Below are positions 21,301 to 60,828 of a stretch of 64,000 nucleotides of DNA, piece by piece. Origin of the DNA: an uncultured Clostridia bacterium (GTDB lineage Bacteria > Bacillota > Clostridia > TANB77 > CAG-508). Position 1 is the stretch's first letter. The number at the start of each line of letters is the position of its first letter. The notes under the pieces were generated by a model. The model was not told the DNA's origin, searched no databases, and was given only the letters and a program-made list of their open reading frames with translations. The position numbers were made by a program, and so were the translations under genes. Location of the stretch: assembly GCA_947627105.1 (NCBI GenBank), contig CANQUT010000001.1, forward strand, positions 5,980-69,979, given 5' to 3'.

Positions 21301-23414
21301 AATACAACTCTGTATATGTACATGGACTAAACAATAAAAAATTACAAACAGGTGAAGAAGCATACATTTATTTAACATTTAAAGTAAATTCAGATGATAA
21401 AGGTCCAGTTATATTAGATAATGATGACAGTTTAAAACAAAACTATGTTGAAATTAATGGTTATAAAAGCTATTATAAAAACGGAACTAAACTACCAAAT
21501 AACATAACAATTAATGGTAATAATACAGTAGCAGGAATTATAGATAATAACTCTACACCTGGTAACTTATGCTTAAATGATTTACAAGGAGAAAAATACG
21601 AGAAAAACTTTGAAGATGATACAGATAGAGCAAAAAGTATAAAAGTTGCTTTAGACATAAATGCAATTAGAGAAATAAATGGTACAGTTTGGGAAGATGA
21701 AAGAACACAAACTGTAAATGGTGCAATAATAGGAGACGGCGTAAGACAAACAGGTGAAATAGGAATTAAAGGTATAACTGTAGAACTAGTAGAAAAACTA
21801 GCAAATGGAAGCGAATATGTATGGCAAGTAGCTGAAACTGATGAAAATGGTTTATATAAATTTACAGGCTTCATACCAGGAAATTATATTGTTAGGTTTA
21901 AATATGGTAATGATGTAAAAACTGTTTTAACAGAGGCAAATGGCGGAGAAAATGCAGTATCATATAATGGTCAGGACTTTAAATCAACAGTGTATAGTAA
22001 AGACTTAAAAAATAATATAACAGTTTCAAAATATACAGACGAATATTATAATATCTTAGAATCAGATAAACTAAGTGTTAATAAAAATGCAAATGTATCA
22101 GATGCAAAAGATATATGGGAAAGTAAAACTATAAACACTGGTAGAACAACAAATAATCAAACTAAATATCAAAATGAAAGCTATCAAGGAAGAACTAATG
22201 TTAATAATTATTCTTCAGGAGCTATAGGAAATTCTAAAGCACAAATATTAGCATCACCATATGCACAAAACATTAATAATAGCATGATACAAGAACTAAT
22301 AGCAAATACTAATATGGTAGCAGAAACTGCTATTATTAAAACAGAAGTAGAATATGATAGAACACTTTCAAATGGTAACAATACAGAAAGTAATGGAGAA
22401 CAATATTTATATAATAATGATAAAAACGGAGAATATGTTTTAAACAATATAGACTTCGGACTTACAGAAAGACCAAAAGCTCAAATAGAACTTGATAAAA
22501 AAGTAACTAATGTAAAATTAACTTTAGGAGATGGTCAAATAGTATTTGATACAAATAAATCTGTAGACAATTTATCTTGGCTTAAAGGTAATTCATATAA
22601 TTTATCTAACCAAATGAAAAACAATAAATATGAAGAATATTATAGCCAAAGTAAAACAAATAAATCATTTAATCGTTATTCATATAAAACACAAATTAAC
22701 AACTTAATTAATTCACTTTATAAAAACGGAAGAAATGGATTAATACAAGCAATAATAGATTCAGAGCTTGCACATGGAGCAACTATTCAAGTTTCTTATG
22801 AATTGATGGTTAAAAACGTAAGTGAAACAGATTATTCTAATAAAGATTTCTATTATTCAGCAACTGGTGCATCAGATAATTACAAAGTAACAACATCTGC
22901 TAATATGGTAATAGACTATGTAGCAAATAACTTACAATATAGCGCATTAAATAATGCAGGATGGACACTTGTAAAATCTCCTAATAGTACAATTGCAGAT
23001 GGCTTAGTTGATAATAATATAAAAGATAAAGCAAACTCATATAATAACATAATAGCAACTACACAATTAAGCAAAAATCTAAAACCAGGTGAAAATATAA
23101 CTAAAGATTTATTATTATCACAAATAATTTATAACGGATCTGAATCAGATAATAAATCTTACGAAAATATTTCTGAAATTGTTCAAACAACTAATACAGT
23201 TGGTAGAAGAATGGCATATTCAATTGCAGGTAACCAAGATCCAACAGCAGAACCTACTGAAGTAGACAGTAGCAAAGCAGAAACAATAGTTGTAGTTCCA
23301 CCATTTGGTTTAACACAAATTTTATATATAGGAATCGCTTTAGCAGTAGTTACTATATTAGCAGTAGGAATCGTATTCATTAAGAAGGGGACAGGTCCCA
23401 ATGCTCGTTTTTAA
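18333..23414 (+). CDS. Giant thioester-domain adhesin B2 (1693 aa), paralog of B1
   Basis: GGGAGG RBS 14 nt after A2 stop; QLYCIEKG Cys motif and EVRQVAIWLNP Gln motif; many blocks identical to B1 (RKDIYRAATRINGKTEVYKY, EEAYIYLTFKVN); C-terminal VVVPPFG + TM; last ~9 codons and the stop lie inside repeat element R1. Confidence 0.85.
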   Translation: MNSKNKIALLVTGILAVFITLVIMFATIVQVNGRKIQEVAKLTKEALTINSSQANGSIKTPGAHNGSSSLWVEALPSNINKVFIPTVGNAQLYCIEKGVSLKSGLERVSTIKALKGTSGSVSSSSCMASLPEKRYSNTYYECVNNHTEMVPSGAYIVTAPDNFIAPYDGVYSYGSSSSFKKGENISQEVRQVAIWLNPEMNKGENFYESGATFTYIDMAEQLKDEAMDYRDYENNLKNNVNNPIKDATSDKIKVSVDQKEQVLILGPYKINYVEGNSASAKFAGISNMVIRGYNDKARKAFIKNLEIVSYIQNGKEHKLDFFNPLKENGYVDKTANSYPVSMQEFYIKIKNPNQGISNGEKKVKYIDINVEYSYMTVYAIQCNLKGHQLVATPIQTSHSNSYHYKYGYLTSCNVGYRWNVTENPLKQQDVIDAWGERNLYKLNINLKGNVDDITTDITMKLGGYTWEDIPEGKENLSNGIKTDEDIIIPNVKVTLYECIMDSNGNVQYKNGKPQANVANLLSEVDKGELSGEELQNRVNPKLTNANGYYQFDGLDVFKKYYVTFEYNGQIYMSTDYLQIGSGSHQNSVQSMVNAKLYNTDIWAITSKTSEISSVRTEYNNKFAEIGSSPKGYRSSDSLKSGKLIEGYNETFSINDLLGYELQENGTYKSVGPRLIDEKYVLDANGNVIEAQSITEGLISQKIKEYITKNYKYPDKNALISIYQNIVREYAKNSKDQEILWKKLQYIEDCKIEAYTASPYEKGNIDLYPVYNKFVVDTQSAVIPGIGTMPPIYNGQYHINSGLWRRQLNNVALRKDIYRAATRINGKTEVYKYDKRSSNEDYWRIELRMQDYQNYYGSYYNREIYPSDYNYKALATNLYGEELELYVTYKISIRNISQGILNEITEVVDYYDKDYTYMPGLSWVMYNENGIDEELSIPEKSYYDIMNNLNLNGLKYAKNINSTYSSVQNGNGTYCGASIYQDASKSDLEKQYNSVYVHGLNNKKLQTGEEAYIYLTFKVNSDDKGPVILDNDDSLKQNYVEINGYKSYYKNGTKLPNNITINGNNTVAGIIDNNSTPGNLCLNDLQGEKYEKNFEDDTDRAKSIKVALDINAIREINGTVWEDERTQTVNGAIIGDGVRQTGEIGIKGITVELVEKLANGSEYVWQVAETDENGLYKFTGFIPGNYIVRFKYGNDVKTVLTEANGGENAVSYNGQDFKSTVYSKDLKNNITVSKYTDEYYNILESDKLSVNKNANVSDAKDIWESKTINTGRTTNNQTKYQNESYQGRTNVNNYSSGAIGNSKAQILASPYAQNINNSMIQELIANTNMVAETAIIKTEVEYDRTLSNGNNTESNGEQYLYNNDKNGEYVLNNIDFGLTERPKAQIELDKKVTNVKLTLGDGQIVFDTNKSVDNLSWLKGNSYNLSNQMKNNKYEEYYSQSKTNKSFNRYSYKTQINNLINSLYKNGRNGLIQAIIDSELAHGATIQVSYELMVKNVSETDYSNKDFYYSATGASDNYKVTTSANMVIDYVANNLQYSALNNAGWTLVKSPNSTIADGLVDNNIKDKANSYNNIIATTQLSKNLKPGENITKDLLLSQIIYNGSESDNKSYENISEIVQTTNTVGRRMAYSIAGNQDPTAEPTEVDSSKAETIVVVPPFGLTQILYIGIALAVVTILAVGIVFIKKGTGPNARF

Positions 23415-23431
23415 GCACTTAGGGACAGGTC
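23387..23431 (+). repeat. GGGACAGGTC double-box repeat element, copy R1 (type I)
   Basis: GGGGACAGGTCCC-22 nt-TTAGGGACAGGTC; near-identical to copy at 60784-60828. Confidence 0.8.
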
Positions 23432-23514
23432 ATAGTAATAAAACCAAGAGGTAATCCTAAAATAAACTAAAAGCAAAAGAGGGTCTCCTAGAATAGGAAC
23501 CTGAAAGCTAAAAA

Positions 23515-23578
23515 AATTCCAGTGAGAAATTGAAGACCAATTTTTTAAAAAGCTTCGAAAAATCACTGGAATTTTTAT
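23515..23578 (+). terminator. Long hairpin (11-bp stem AATTCCAGTGA/TCACTGGAATT) + T-run, likely terminator of A2-B2 operon
   Basis: Perfect 11-bp inverted repeat with ~37-nt loop followed by TTTTTAT. Confidence 0.45.
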
Positions 23579-23781
23579 ATGTAAAATATCGATAAAACCT
23601 TGTATTTTTGAACATTTTACGATAAAATAATAAACAGAAAAAAGTTTAAAAAGTAAAATAAACACAAAAGATGGCAAAATAAGAAGAAAACTTTTTTAAT
23701 TTGTGTATATAAAATGACAAACATTTTAAACAGCTTGTACTAAAATAAAAAGCAAATTAAAAAAGTAGAGGTGGTCACAAA

Positions 23782-59810: not shown

Positions 59811-59824
59811 TTTTTCGCTCCGTA

Positions 59825-60769
59825 TTATATTTTTAATTTCTTTATAATTTTAATTTCATTATATAATTTATCTATTTTATCTTTTCTAATTTCTAATGCT
59901 TGTTTATATTCTTCTAAAACTTGTTTATAATTTTCCATAGTTTCGCCATCTTTACTTTTAATAAGAAGCCTTATACCTTCATTATAATAATCTTTTGTTT
60001 TTTGTTTATTGCTTTTTTCAGCTTTTTCCTCATAGTCTTTTATTGTTTCTAAACGTTTAATTTCTCCTTCTAAATATTTTGCATAGTTCATAACTCCTGT
60101 AATTTCATATAAAGTATCGTCAATAACAACTTTAAATAATTTTTTTAAAATTGTACCATTAACTTTTCCATCTTTTTCTTTTTTAGCTAATTGATCTAAA
60201 GCTAAAAATTTAAGATCTGGCTGAGCATCTTTAATTAATTCTTTTAAAGTTTCAGAAATGTTAACATGTGTTTTATATTGCCTTTTTGTAACAATAGCAT
60301 CATATTCATCTGCTACACGAATAACTTGAGCAACATAAGGAATTTCTTTTTTAGTAATTCCATTTGGATAGCCACTACCATCTAGAGATTCATGATGATC
60401 CAAAGCTCCTAAAGCATAAGGTTTTAAATTTATATCTTTCATACACATATCATAGCCTAAAGTAGTATGTGTTTTCATAATTTCAAATTCTTCATCTGTT
60501 AATCTAGTTGGCTTATTTAAAATTTCAGGTGGAATAGAAATTTTCCCAATATCATGTAAATAGCCACTAATTGTGCAATAAATTGTAAAAGAACGACTAC
60601 ATCTTAAATATTCGCAAATTCTACAACATAAATTTGCAACATTTTCGCTATGCTTTCTAGTAAAAGGATCCATTTTGTTTAACATATTTAGCTCATTTTG
60701 CATACTTTGATTCAAATTATATGCTTTTAAATTTATAGGACTATAAAAATCTATTTTTTCTTCAAACAT
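59825..60769 (-). CDS. HD-GYP domain phosphohydrolase (possible c-di-GMP phosphodiesterase)
   Basis: HD...HHESLDGSGYP motif; start placed at ATG 60769 with AAAGGAGA RBS; ORF-track extension to 60811 runs into repeat element R4 and is rejected. Confidence 0.75.
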   Translation of the reverse strand: MFEEKIDFYSPINLKAYNLNQSMQNELNMLNKMDPFTRKHSENVANLCCRICEYLRCSRSFTIYCTISGYLHDIGKISIPPEILNKPTRLTDEEFEIMKTHTTLGYDMCMKDINLKPYALGALDHHESLDGSGYPNGITKKEIPYVAQVIRVADEYDAIVTKRQYKTHVNISETLKELIKDAQPDLKFLALDQLAKKEKDGKVNGTILKKLFKVVIDDTLYEITGVMNYAKYLEGEIKRLETIKDYEEKAEKSNKQKTKDYYNEGIRLLIKSKDGETMENYKQVLEEYKQALEIRKDKIDKLYNEIKIIKKLKI

Positions 60770-60783
60770 GTATATTCTCCTTT

Positions 60784-60828
60784 GGGGACAGGTCCAACTG
60801 CTTGTTTTCAAGCACTTAGGGACAGGTC
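60784..60828 (+). repeat. GGGACAGGTC double-box repeat element, copy R4 (type I)
   Basis: GGGGACAGGTCCAACTGCTTGTTTTCAAGCACTTAGGGACAGGTC. Confidence 0.8.

Follow-up and report, generated by a model that had tools for sequence, protein, structure and literature searches.

Why does a 45-bp sequence built of two similar boxes occur repeatedly in gut clostridial DNA, apparently at the edges of genes? The original prediction, made for the 64-kb stretch of DNA analysed here (the window), described a dispersed repeat with four copies in two subtypes and offered a regulator site, a recombinase site or a small non-autonomous element as possible readings; of these three options, the last is the one that the evidence supports. 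The double-box pattern has exactly four matches in the window vs 0.00 in 100 shuffles, and GGGACAGGTC with at most one mismatch has seven matches vs 0.27 expected. A profile search (nhmmer) and a covariance model run over the window recovered the same four copies and no more, and neither detected decayed copies there. The boxes start 34 bp apart in copies 1 and 4, which make up subtype I, and 33 bp apart in copies 2 and 3, which make up subtype II, in agreement with the 33-34 bp proposed, and the spacers are conserved within each subtype as claimed.

Each copy is predicted to form one imperfect hairpin of about 45 nt with the lower stem GAC-AG-GUCCC...GGGAC-AG-GUC. GUCCC of box 1 pairs with GGGAC of box 2, and GAC of box 1 with GUC of box 2; since the two boxes pair with each other, the unit is a single hairpin. 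What had been taken for two direct boxes are quasi-palindromes that constitute the two arms of this lower stem; an internal loop (AG.AG) interrupts the stem, and TTR-GG precedes it. The predicted fold is identical on both strands and with RNA as well as DNA parameters.

The spacer forms a variable apical stem, which comes in at least eight unrelated versions, always self-complementary, across about 16 MAGs of related gut Clostridia. Folded by itself, the spacer reaches -3.6 kcal/mol vs -0.6 for shuffles. Among 96 distinct copies, the fraction of paired cells (81.5% vs 74.6%), the number of double-sided changes (111 vs 51) and the covariation score (0.224 vs 0.114) were each unmatched in 500 shuffles, and controls with slid partners scored far lower than the true pairing. 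Compensatory changes occur at all six of the apical pairs.

The four copies, each detected by pattern, nhmmer, covariance model and folding, all lie on the + strand. Copy 1 (subtype I, 23387-23431) has GGGGACAGGTCCC (23387-23399) as its outer arm and TTAGGGACAGGTC (23419-23431) as its inner arm, with the apical stem-loop AATGCTCGTTTTTAAGCAC between them; from this copy a 1693-aa surface-protein ORF takes its last eight codons (GTGPNARF) and its stop (TAA, 23412-23414). In copy 2 (subtype II, 28019-28062, or 28017-28062 with the whole TAA), the apical part TTTTTCCCTTTTTAGGTAA is enclosed by the outer arm GGGACAGTCCC (28020-28030) and the inner arm TTAGGGACAGGTT (28050-28062); the TAA at 28017-28019, which occupies the position of the TTR prefix, is the stop of a WG-repeat protein ORF, and the next gene starts 38 nt past the end of the copy. 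Copy 3 (subtype II, 35560-35603) has the outer arm GGGGACAGTCCC (35560-35571), the apical stem CCC/GGG and the inner arm TTAGGGACAGGTC (35591-35603). The stop TAA of an Exo_endo_phos ORF (35588-35590) lies inside it, and 22 nt separate it from the next start codon, the RBS and start of an AI-2E transporter gene being located at 35606-35628. Copy 4 (subtype I, 60784-60828) is composed of the outer arm GGGGACAGGTCC (60784-60795), the apical stem TGCTTG/CAAGCA and the inner arm TTAGGGACAGGTC (60816-60828). Its outer end is 2-3 nt from the reverse-strand RBS (CTCCT, 60777-60781) of an HD-domain gene, whose start is the CAT at 60767-60769 on the reverse strand, and about 150 nt of non-coding DNA adjoin its inner side. 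All four copies lie at gene boundaries, as had been noted.

The family to which these copies belong comprises 90 genomic stretches and is restricted almost entirely to about 16 species of uncultured gut Clostridia/Bacillota MAGs; the covariance model gives 112 matches in 0.67 Mb. The density is about one copy per 6-16 kb; most copies are singlets or direct arrays, and inverted pairs also occur. Box 1 always forms the outer end (0 divergent vs 10 convergent pairs). Statistics run across the family also bear out the placement at gene boundaries, with the boundary at a median of 12 nt from box 1 vs 78 nt from box 2 (p = 6e-5); box 1 adjoins either an RBS or a stop codon, the latter in many cases being provided by box 1 itself. 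Orientation relative to replication is weakly biased, about 68:32, and the common orientation of the four copies in the window, correct as an observation, reflects this mild family-wide bias (about 68% leading/coding) plus chance. At orthologous sites, subtypes I and II swap and arrays differ in size. No clean pair of filled and empty sites was found: relatives without a copy have the sequence replaced, rather than precisely empty.

The only transposase gene that recurs near copies is a Y1 gene, and the ORFs bracketed by copies in relatives of the window encode Y1_Tnp proteins of 255-285 aa. The recombinase link made in the original prediction holds in a broad sense, the cognate protein being a single-strand HUH/Y1 transposase. 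The gene occupies one locus per genome in the DNA examined, which is from incomplete genomes, and the order is always GH15 - Y1 - radA - disA. It is flanked by inverted copies in the closest relative of the window (L096, Lapin-012 bin112, 90-99% identical) and in at least six other species, with a (+) copy upstream and a (-) copy downstream (L052, L081, L086, L091-L094, L096/97). The box-2 sides face the gene, and the pair carries the core type of its own genome. On an unrelated contig (L013), a 33%-identical homolog is accompanied by TTAGGGACAGGTCC units that stop 7 nt before the ATG. The transposase gene is absent from the 64-kb window; judging from the relatives, the window's own genome probably carries it.

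The Y1 proteins have invariant HUH, Y---NP and WSS motifs, of which Y---NP is the class-2 tyrosine motif as defined in PMC6006769; NHVHL and RY(I/V)HxNP show no variation in sets of 15 and 22 sequences. Among NCBIfam models, NF047646 (REP-associated tyrosine transposase) matches best, at E 4e-20 and 72 bits; it scores 50-72 bits vs 17-21 bits for IS200 models. The match spans the full profile, but the best score stays below the equivalog cut-off of 80 bits, and the family is divergent. The sole PDB profile match is 4ER8, E. coli TnpA_REP bound to REP, to which the identity is 16%. The same entry is the top Foldseek match of the AF2 model (pLDDT 86; E 1.8e-7, TM 0.74), with IS608/ISDra2 at TM 0.56-0.68 in the same search. 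By profiles, PDB match and Foldseek, the Y1 enzyme is nearer TnpA_REP than IS200 transposases. The C-terminal half of the model is helical, and residues ~225-261 give sub-threshold HTH matches (HTH_23 5/15, HTH_28 4/15, HTH_Tnp_ISL3 5/15).

Taken together, we consider it quite likely that the repeats are REP-like palindromic 'TIR/REP' elements of a RAYT system of the TIRYT / TnpA_REP subclass-2.1 type. Repeats flanking the RAYT-like TIRYT genes bear a GGGGWSAS motif (Di Nocera et al. 2013, PMC3733652; PMC6006769), and TnpA_REP subclass 2.1 (Quentin et al. 2018, PMC6006769), whose long proteins have a C-terminal HTH-like domain (HTH_23/HTH_28/Bac_DnaA_C), has been identified with TIRtrons/TIRYT genes. 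The box GGGGACAG, which copies 1, 3 and 4 and the majority of the family have as box 1, fits this motif. As in TIRtrons, a RAYT-like Y1 protein that is longer than classical RAYTs and has the class-2 Y---NP motif, a serine motif and an HTH-like C-terminal tail (putative and sub-threshold here) is encoded between inverted repeats carrying GGGGWSAS, and the repeats are partly self-complementary and dispersed as singles, dimers and clusters. Membership in subclass 2.1 is suggested by this motif and by the long protein with its sub-threshold tail. Unlike TIRtrons, which have no description in Clostridia MAGs, the clostridial repeat is abundant, clearly hairpin-shaped and overlaps ORF ends.

The resemblance to the REP-BIME-REPIN and RAYT systems of E. 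coli and Pseudomonas (PDB 4ER8; PMC3333891, PMC3479197, PMC8266576, PMC3116915) is also considerable. In both cases, short imperfect palindromes with an interrupted stem after a conserved motif are present in many copies at gene boundaries, cluster in arrays, have lineage-specific sequence variants and lack target duplications, and a repeat-flanked HUH/Y1 gene is single-copy and vertically inherited (putatively so in the Clostridia, in the MAG DNA examined). However, the clostridial element lacks the canonical 5' GT[AG]G tetranucleotide at the hairpin foot, which is TTR-GGGGACAG instead, and its whole lower stem is conserved. Its copies are mostly singlets or direct arrays, not inverted doublets as in REPINs, and the protein, from a low-GC Firmicute host, has an extra C-terminal region of about 120 aa. 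IS200/IS605 elements (IS608, ISDra2) likewise have the HUH/Y1 fold and sub-terminal hairpins that are recognised in single-stranded DNA, and they too make no TSDs, but they are multi-copy, autonomous and strongly lagging-strand biased, whereas the clostridial orientation bias is weak, its gene lies at a conserved locus and IS200 models score 18-21 bits.

Systems of the REP/RAYT (TIRtron) kind are known, but none had been described for this lineage: in uncultured, very AT-rich gut Clostridia, which here come from rabbit, human, chicken and other hosts, they have hardly been characterised at all. An HTH-bearing RAYT-like protein would be linked to an abundant hairpin repeat with the GGGGWSAS motif, and types I and II with their natural variants are concrete candidate substrates for this subclass.

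As to the mechanism, binding and cleavage of the single-stranded repeat by E. coli TnpA_REP have been studied biochemically (PMC8266576). By analogy with that enzyme and with IS200/IS605 biochemistry, the clostridial enzyme would bind the folded single-stranded hairpin, reading the lower stem, the internal loop and the 5' motif. Single-stranded DNA would be cut and rejoined at the outer (box 1) end without target duplications, which would allow units to be copied, to accumulate as arrays and to replace one another at sites already occupied. The lack of a general target-site duplication and the constant outer position of box 1 are consistent with an HUH mechanism. The polarity, with box 1 outward and adjoining genes, and the subtype swapping offer testable clues to the copying mode. 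Several observations speak against the RAYT reading: the transposase gene is not in the window, its protein scores below the equivalog cut-off and has low identity to 4ER8, the GT[AG]G tag is missing, no clean filled and empty sites were found, the orientation bias is weak, unlike that of IS608-type insertions, and two subtypes coexist with only one transposase locus seen.

A bolder version of the RAYT reading, which we regard as rather doubtful, is that a domesticated HTH-bearing RAYT-like enzyme maintains hairpin units at fixed slots, shaping gene ends through box-targeted 'core-exchange'. Units would be added only at the outer (box 1) end, the adjacent flank would be eroded up to the gene boundary, and apical cores would be exchanged in situ (I to II). 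If so, the element would routinely donate stop codons and replace terminators and 5'-UTR hairpins, which is more than mere selfish dispersal. The subclass 2.1 enzymes, beside whose genes Quentin et al. found no REP-like structures (PMC6006769), would then gain a natural hairpin substrate.

Another reading is that the element is primarily a host-selected cis-acting RNA hairpin, acting as an mRNA 3'-end stabiliser, intercistronic processing barrier or terminator substitute, with an incidental link to Y1. We find this improbable as an origin. It is in keeping with the exact placement of copies at stop codons or shortly before an RBS, with copy 1 and one bin112 copy occupying the position of an ordinary terminator in a paralog or ortholog, and with the slot upstream of radA being conserved across genera. 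In Clostridium, operon stoichiometry is set by intergenic stem-loops (PMC4423207); these stem-loops of selective RNA processing and stabilisation (SRPS) likewise come right after stop codons inside operons, but they do not form families with a conserved sequence and an associated transposase. MIRU- and RPE-type repeats also overlap gene ends and give codons and stop codons to flanking ORFs, but MIRU is not palindromic and RPE is much longer and internal to ORFs.

Such an RNA hairpin, however, does not account for a 13-nt sequence that is invariant across genera although the apical stem varies, and it leaves the arrays, the subtype swapping and the copies flanking the Y1 gene in at least seven species and L013 without explanation. 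Both orientations relative to transcription occur (40 vs 24), there is no G.U asymmetry between the strands (76 vs 88), and Rfam gave only chance-level matches, none at gathering level. Terminator-like scores, which favour this reading, are confined to box 1 of subtype II with the T-run that follows it (28018-28032 and 35560-35572), whereas a U-tract is absent after the subtype I hairpin and after the whole-element hairpin; the terminator role raised in the original prediction applies at most to subtype II. Given that copies coincide with stop codons or closely precede an RBS, the transcribed hairpin may serve as a barrier or as a stabiliser of mRNA ends, and at some sites it would stand at a terminator position. 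The RNA-hairpin reading is best seen as such a possible secondary effect of a RAYT-associated repeat, as with E. coli REPs, rather than as a rival origin.

That the boxes are duplex sites for a dimeric transcription factor or a site-specific recombinase, three helical turns apart, was the leading idea of the original prediction and now appears very unlikely. Box 1 is indeed a near-palindrome with a 1-2 bp asymmetric centre, the spacing is steady, and the weak C-terminal HTH-like region of the Y1 protein could bind duplex DNA. The model is nevertheless disfavoured because it does not predict a self-complementary spacer, whose pairing is upheld by compensatory changes across at least eight sequence classes, or the pairing of box 1 with box 2. 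The overlap with ORF 3' ends, the density, the arrays and the inverted pairs are not regulon-like, and synapsis of duplex sites would need more than a 33-bp interval. Near the copies, neither a regulator gene nor a tyrosine/serine recombinase gene recurs. The element is not a regulator operator.

There is equally little chance that the repeat is an ordinary MITE that derives from a DDE-type insertion sequence and moves by cut-and-paste with target-site duplications. In its favour, the element is short, lies dispersed between genes and has ends that make up an imperfect inverted repeat (GACNNGTCC), and flank repeats of 8-9 bp are seen at four or five independent sites (L038/L064, L040/L080, L043, L082). 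The overall flank-repeat distribution, however, equals the random control; near the copies no DDE transposase or parent IS recurs, the associated gene encodes an HUH/Y1 enzyme, and a search of viral contigs for the element gave no matches. A CRISPR array, already dismissed in the original prediction, is rejected, as each copy usually has two 'repeats', the spacer is self-complementary and subtype-conserved, and the copies are dispersed.

The element also accounts for two features of these MAGs, namely breaks in contigs, at the transposase locus as well as at repeats, and ORFs whose 3' ends have been rewritten.

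Four elements occur in the window, all on the + strand: copies 1 (23387-23431) and 4 (60784-60828) belong to subtype I, and copies 2 (28019-28062) and 3 (35560-35603) to subtype II. The dispersed, uniformly oriented copies described in the original prediction were all recovered, and its division into two subtypes is borne out, with the boxes lying 34 bp apart in subtype I and 33 bp apart in subtype II because box 1 of the latter is one base shorter. The double-box pattern matches the window four times against 0.00 in shuffled sequences, and a single box with at most one mismatch seven times against 0.27 expected. 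Both a profile search (nhmmer) and a covariance model return exactly the four elements and no decayed copies within the window. The setting is the core chromosome of a spore-former of 26-31% GC, with SpoIIE, rpoB/C, GdpP, L9, DnaB and FtsH present, and the + strand is the leading strand, GC and AT skew being positive throughout. A CRISPR or mini-array is dismissed, as the prediction also held, since the spacers are conserved and palindromic and the copies are scattered.

Each copy is a single hairpin whose lower stem is conserved and whose apex covaries. GAC and GUCCC of box 1 pair with GUC and GGGAC of box 2, leaving an internal AG.AG loop (in subtype II, A versus AG), and the apical stem, topped by a T-rich loop, comes from the spacer. 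The earlier interpretation stands with respect to real repeats at gene boundaries, but the boxes it took as direct are quasi-palindromic and pair one with the other. The identical hairpin is predicted on both strands, at -12.6 to -21.2 kcal/mol with RNA parameters and -6.5 to -10.1 kcal/mol with DNA parameters. Among relatives, the apical sequence is wholly different between genomes and its self-complementarity is kept; the stems seen are TGCTTG/CAAGCA, CCCC/GGGG, TCCTT/AAGGA, GACCA/TGGTC, TTCCC/GGGAA, CGACA/TGTCG, TTTCTG/CAGAAA and AATTTCT/AGAAATT. The spacer alone has a minimum free energy of -3.6 kcal/mol, compared with -0.6 for shuffles. A covariance-model alignment of 96 distinct copies was used to count covariation, as MAFFT misplaces subtype II by one column. 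Paired cells amount to 81.5% versus 74.6% in shuffles (0/500), double-sided changes to 111 versus 51 (0/500), and compensatory changes are present at 6/6 apical pairs. The covariation score is 0.224 versus 0.114 shuffled (0/500) and 0.06-0.13 with slid partners, the latter being the fairer comparison for an alignment that is fitted to the structure and leans towards pairing. The wobble pairs are symmetric between strands (76 vs 88), implicating a palindrome rather than a strand-specific RNA; the occurrence of copies in both orientations also argues against such an RNA. Nor is the element a known RNA family or riboswitch, Rfam giving nothing at gathering level and chance matches only at permissive E-values.

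With the two boxes held constant and any spacer allowed, a search of 185,579 species genomes matched 90 genomic stretches (8-kb tiles, designated by L numbers), nearly all from about 16 uncultured gut Clostridia/Bacillota MAGs of rabbit, Brazilian samples, human, Hadza and chicken. The window's own genome is absent from these matches, and the closest relatives among them are 90-99% identical. The element family is restricted to one clade. Viral contigs gave 0 matches, so that a phage-borne element was rejected, and a literature search for the motif string returned unrelated eukaryotic primers only and no description of this repeat. In rabbit MAGs, a diverged companion unit, GGGGACG-TTTCTTTAAGCGACAGTTTGTCGCTTT-TGGGACAC, recurs beside type I copies, 10-90 nt to the box 2 side (L033, L043, L054, L090). 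The UMGS1788/Hadza genomes have the apical core of this unit, AAGCGACAGTTTGTCGCTT, as their main core type, so that core types are old sub-families common across genera. A chicken MAG has copies whose boxes point the same way but whose apical loop is either A-rich (GACCAAAATGGTC) or T-rich (GACCATTTTGGTC) (L058 2186-2228 versus L086 2557-2600), and the apical hairpin can therefore flip relative to the lower stem.

A search for a cognate recombinase, as the original prediction had proposed, led to a Y1_Tnp gene that is present in relatives and flanked by copies. ORF clustering near copies and a crude tblastn with an approximate IS608 TnpA query found no transposase; a Pfam scan of box-bracketed ORFs revealed a Y1_Tnp protein of 255-285 aa, encoded directly upstream of radA. 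Because the gene adjoins radA, the conserved element slot upstream of the radA RBS, occupied in four species by the core type of each, is its 3' flank. On long contigs, including that of Lapin-012 bin112 (hereafter bin112), the closest relative of the window, the gene order is always RNase J-like - GH15 - Y1 - RadA - DisA - PPIase, and in every case a (+) copy lies over the GH15 stop and a (-) copy before the radA RBS. These inverted copies face the gene with their box 2 sides and carry the dominant core type of their own genome. No Y1 homolog is present within the window. Metagenomes contain 415 homologs, many on contigs of about 1 kb, and rabbit MAG contigs break exactly at the locus upstream of radA (the start of L004, the ends of L028 and L056); both observations suggest that the repeats on either side are a systematic cause of broken short-read assemblies in the clade.

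The Y1 proteins invariantly contain the HUH motif (NHVHL), the class-2 tyrosine motif RY[IV]HxNP and WSS. Their closest curated family is NF047646, REP-associated tyrosine transposase, with up to 72 bits over the full-length profile (E 4e-20), which is below the 80-bit equivalog cut-off; IS200 scores 17-21 bits. A single-sequence PDB search found nothing, and the sole match of a family-profile search was 4ER8, E. coli TnpA_REP, entitled "REP associated tyrosine transposase bound to a REP hairpin". The same entry is the top Foldseek match of an AF2 model (pLDDT 86.4), with E 1.8e-7, TM 0.74 and rmsd 2.4 A, followed by the IS608, ISDra2 and IS200 transposases. The proteins have about 120 extra C-terminal residues, where HTH matches are weak but consistent. 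On an unrelated 1.5-kb contig (L013), a pair of TTAGGGACAGGTCC units stops 7 nt short of the ATG of a 33%-identical homolog. Tandem 39-65 bp repeats with the same 14-mer were observed in unrelated phyla, namely Verrucomicrobia/Chthoniobacterales (L009, L084), Omnitrophota (L034), Bariatricus (L061) and Haloimpatiens (L078), with no RAYT homolog nearby within the 8-kb tiles. As the repeat of L013 adjoins a RAYT-like gene, these may be repeats of other TIRYT systems rather than chance matches.

A REPtron is an HUH/Y1 gene flanked by palindromes thought to be mobilised by it (PMC3333891, PMC3116915), and the architecture here is alike, with a single HUH/Y1 gene flanked by dispersed palindromes that it presumably mobilises. 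REPs also offer parallels for the break in the lower stem and for the TTR-GG prefix, but no canonical GT[AG]G tag is present here. TIRYT genes are RAYT-like and flanked by inverted repeats with GGGGWSAS in common; some of these repeats are self-complementary and make up families of moderate abundance, as singles, dimers and clusters (PMC3733652). Quentin et al. treat TIRYTs as equivalent to TnpA_REP subclass 2.1, whose members are long and carry an HTH_23/HTH_28/DnaA_C-like domain at the C-terminus, and they found no REP-like structures near the genes (PMC6006769). Judged from sequence, the TIRYT/TIRtron appears to be a better match than the canonical REP, given the HTH-like C-terminal extension and GGGGWSAS in box 1, GGGGACAG, which fits the motif exactly. 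Clostridia are already on record as carrying group 1 RAYTs (PMC5581495). We consider it highly probable that the elements are a REP/RAYT system of the TIRtron type in uncultured gut Clostridia. They supply a natural predicted hairpin substrate for the HTH-bearing RAYT class, and their unusual polarity and in-situ subtype exchange are a further source of interest.

The copies show no preference for one type of intergenic region, since the types holding them (64/12/9) match the background proportions (390/56/48). Both orientations relative to flanking genes occur (40 vs 24 in co-directional contexts), and about 68% of copies overall are in the leading/coding orientation; the 4/4 on the + strand of the window is therefore a mild bias plus chance. 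Around inverted copies the entire neighbourhood is inverted too, with a GC skew of -0.15 in (-,-) contexts, which rules out a replication-oriented motif (KOPS/Chi-like) or strict lagging-strand insertion. When orthologs were collapsed to 66 independent sites, the median distance to the nearest gene boundary was 12 nt for box 1 and 78 nt for box 2, with box 1 the nearer at 38 sites versus 10 (p = 6e-5), a rule that holds for 4/4 window copies. The upstream ORF typically stops inside the element at -27, -30 or -35, or alternatively in the TTR prefix when this reads TAA or TAG, and an opposite-strand RBS lies 2-6 nt from box 1. Box remnants are enriched on the box 2 side only (35 within 150 nt vs about 4.5 expected; 6 on the left), and neighbouring pairs are direct (13) or convergent with box 2 sides facing (10), never divergent (0). 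It follows that the unit has box 1 at its outer end. One complete intergenic region, in L054, consists of a stop, a rightward type I copy, a remnant, a leftward type II copy and an RBS. The abutment of box 1 to genes could reflect flank erosion from a nick there, or selection for a gene-proximal unit.

Copies form arrays and exchange subtypes at fixed sites. Subtypes I and II occupy the same site in different relatives in at least 6 cases, including 3/4 window sites; copy 3 is of type II in the window and type I in bin112, with flanks 95-98% identical. Array size varies between genomes as well, a site with II-II-I in L077 having I in L024 and II in L073, and L001 and L030 have flanks 99% identical, yet 5 differences in 43 positions within the element. 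Clean empty sites were not found among relatives, those without a copy carrying replaced sequence, such as the final 18 codons of one ORF when L073 is set against L007. No general target-site duplication exists, although 8-9 bp flank repeats are present at 4-5 sites, and a TSD-forming MITE was rejected.

Replacement also involves terminators. Between window and bin112, an ORF end and an ordinary terminator are replaced (window 30880-30965): the window has a bidirectional terminator hairpin (30930-30959) between convergent TatD and M48-peptidase genes, and bin112 has a type I element (L016 2058-2100) in place of it and the last TatD codons. Four tandem paralogous giant surface-protein genes (2660-7831, 7848-13148, 13357-18318 and 18333-23414; 1653-1766 aa, SdrD_B and CarboxypepD_reg-like domains) form two pairs 10 kb apart with about 75% nucleotide identity between them. 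The first pair ends in a canonical terminator (about 13160-13210), and the second in hairpin copy 1. The paralog of the copy 1 gene has a charged tail and then a textbook terminator; in the copy 1 gene the element follows directly on the membrane anchor (…IKK|GTGPNARF*), and a canonical terminator is lacking downstream. The terminator role considered in the original prediction is tenable in part at most: only box 1 of subtype II looks like an intrinsic terminator, and the element is not a generic one.

From the biochemistry of the family, we infer that the enzyme would bind the folded single strand, reading the lower stem, the loop and the 5' motif, and would cut and rejoin at the box 1 end. 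Such reactions may add or replace units beside existing ones, and arrays would shrink by box-box recombination or slippage, resulting in I/II swaps. A further role is suggested by REPs and by the intercistronic stem-loops of Clostridium (PMC4423207): once transcribed, copies may stabilise mRNAs or delimit them, and at some sites may take over from terminators.

A second, unrelated repeat of about 128-140 bp is located at 32671-32798 and 41123-41262 of the window. Its terminal inverted repeats are perfect over 15 bp (GCTTAAATAGTACTA ... TAGTACTATTTAAGC), it pairs internally through GGTCCCGTT...AACGGGC, and it resembles a MITE; copies at 81-94% identity occur in about 12 of the related MAG loci. 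Bin112 has a type I hairpin element at the site that this repeat holds at 41.1-41.3 kb of the window. Two genes of the window appear to be split: an M48 peptidase has its N- and C-terminal halves in overlapping - strand ORFs (30968-31321 / 31315-31863), and an amidohydrolase lies in overlapping + strand ORFs (60978-61910 / 61855-62268) covering Amidohydro_1 positions 1-247 and 246-344. Both may represent frameshifts, pseudogenes or assembly errors.
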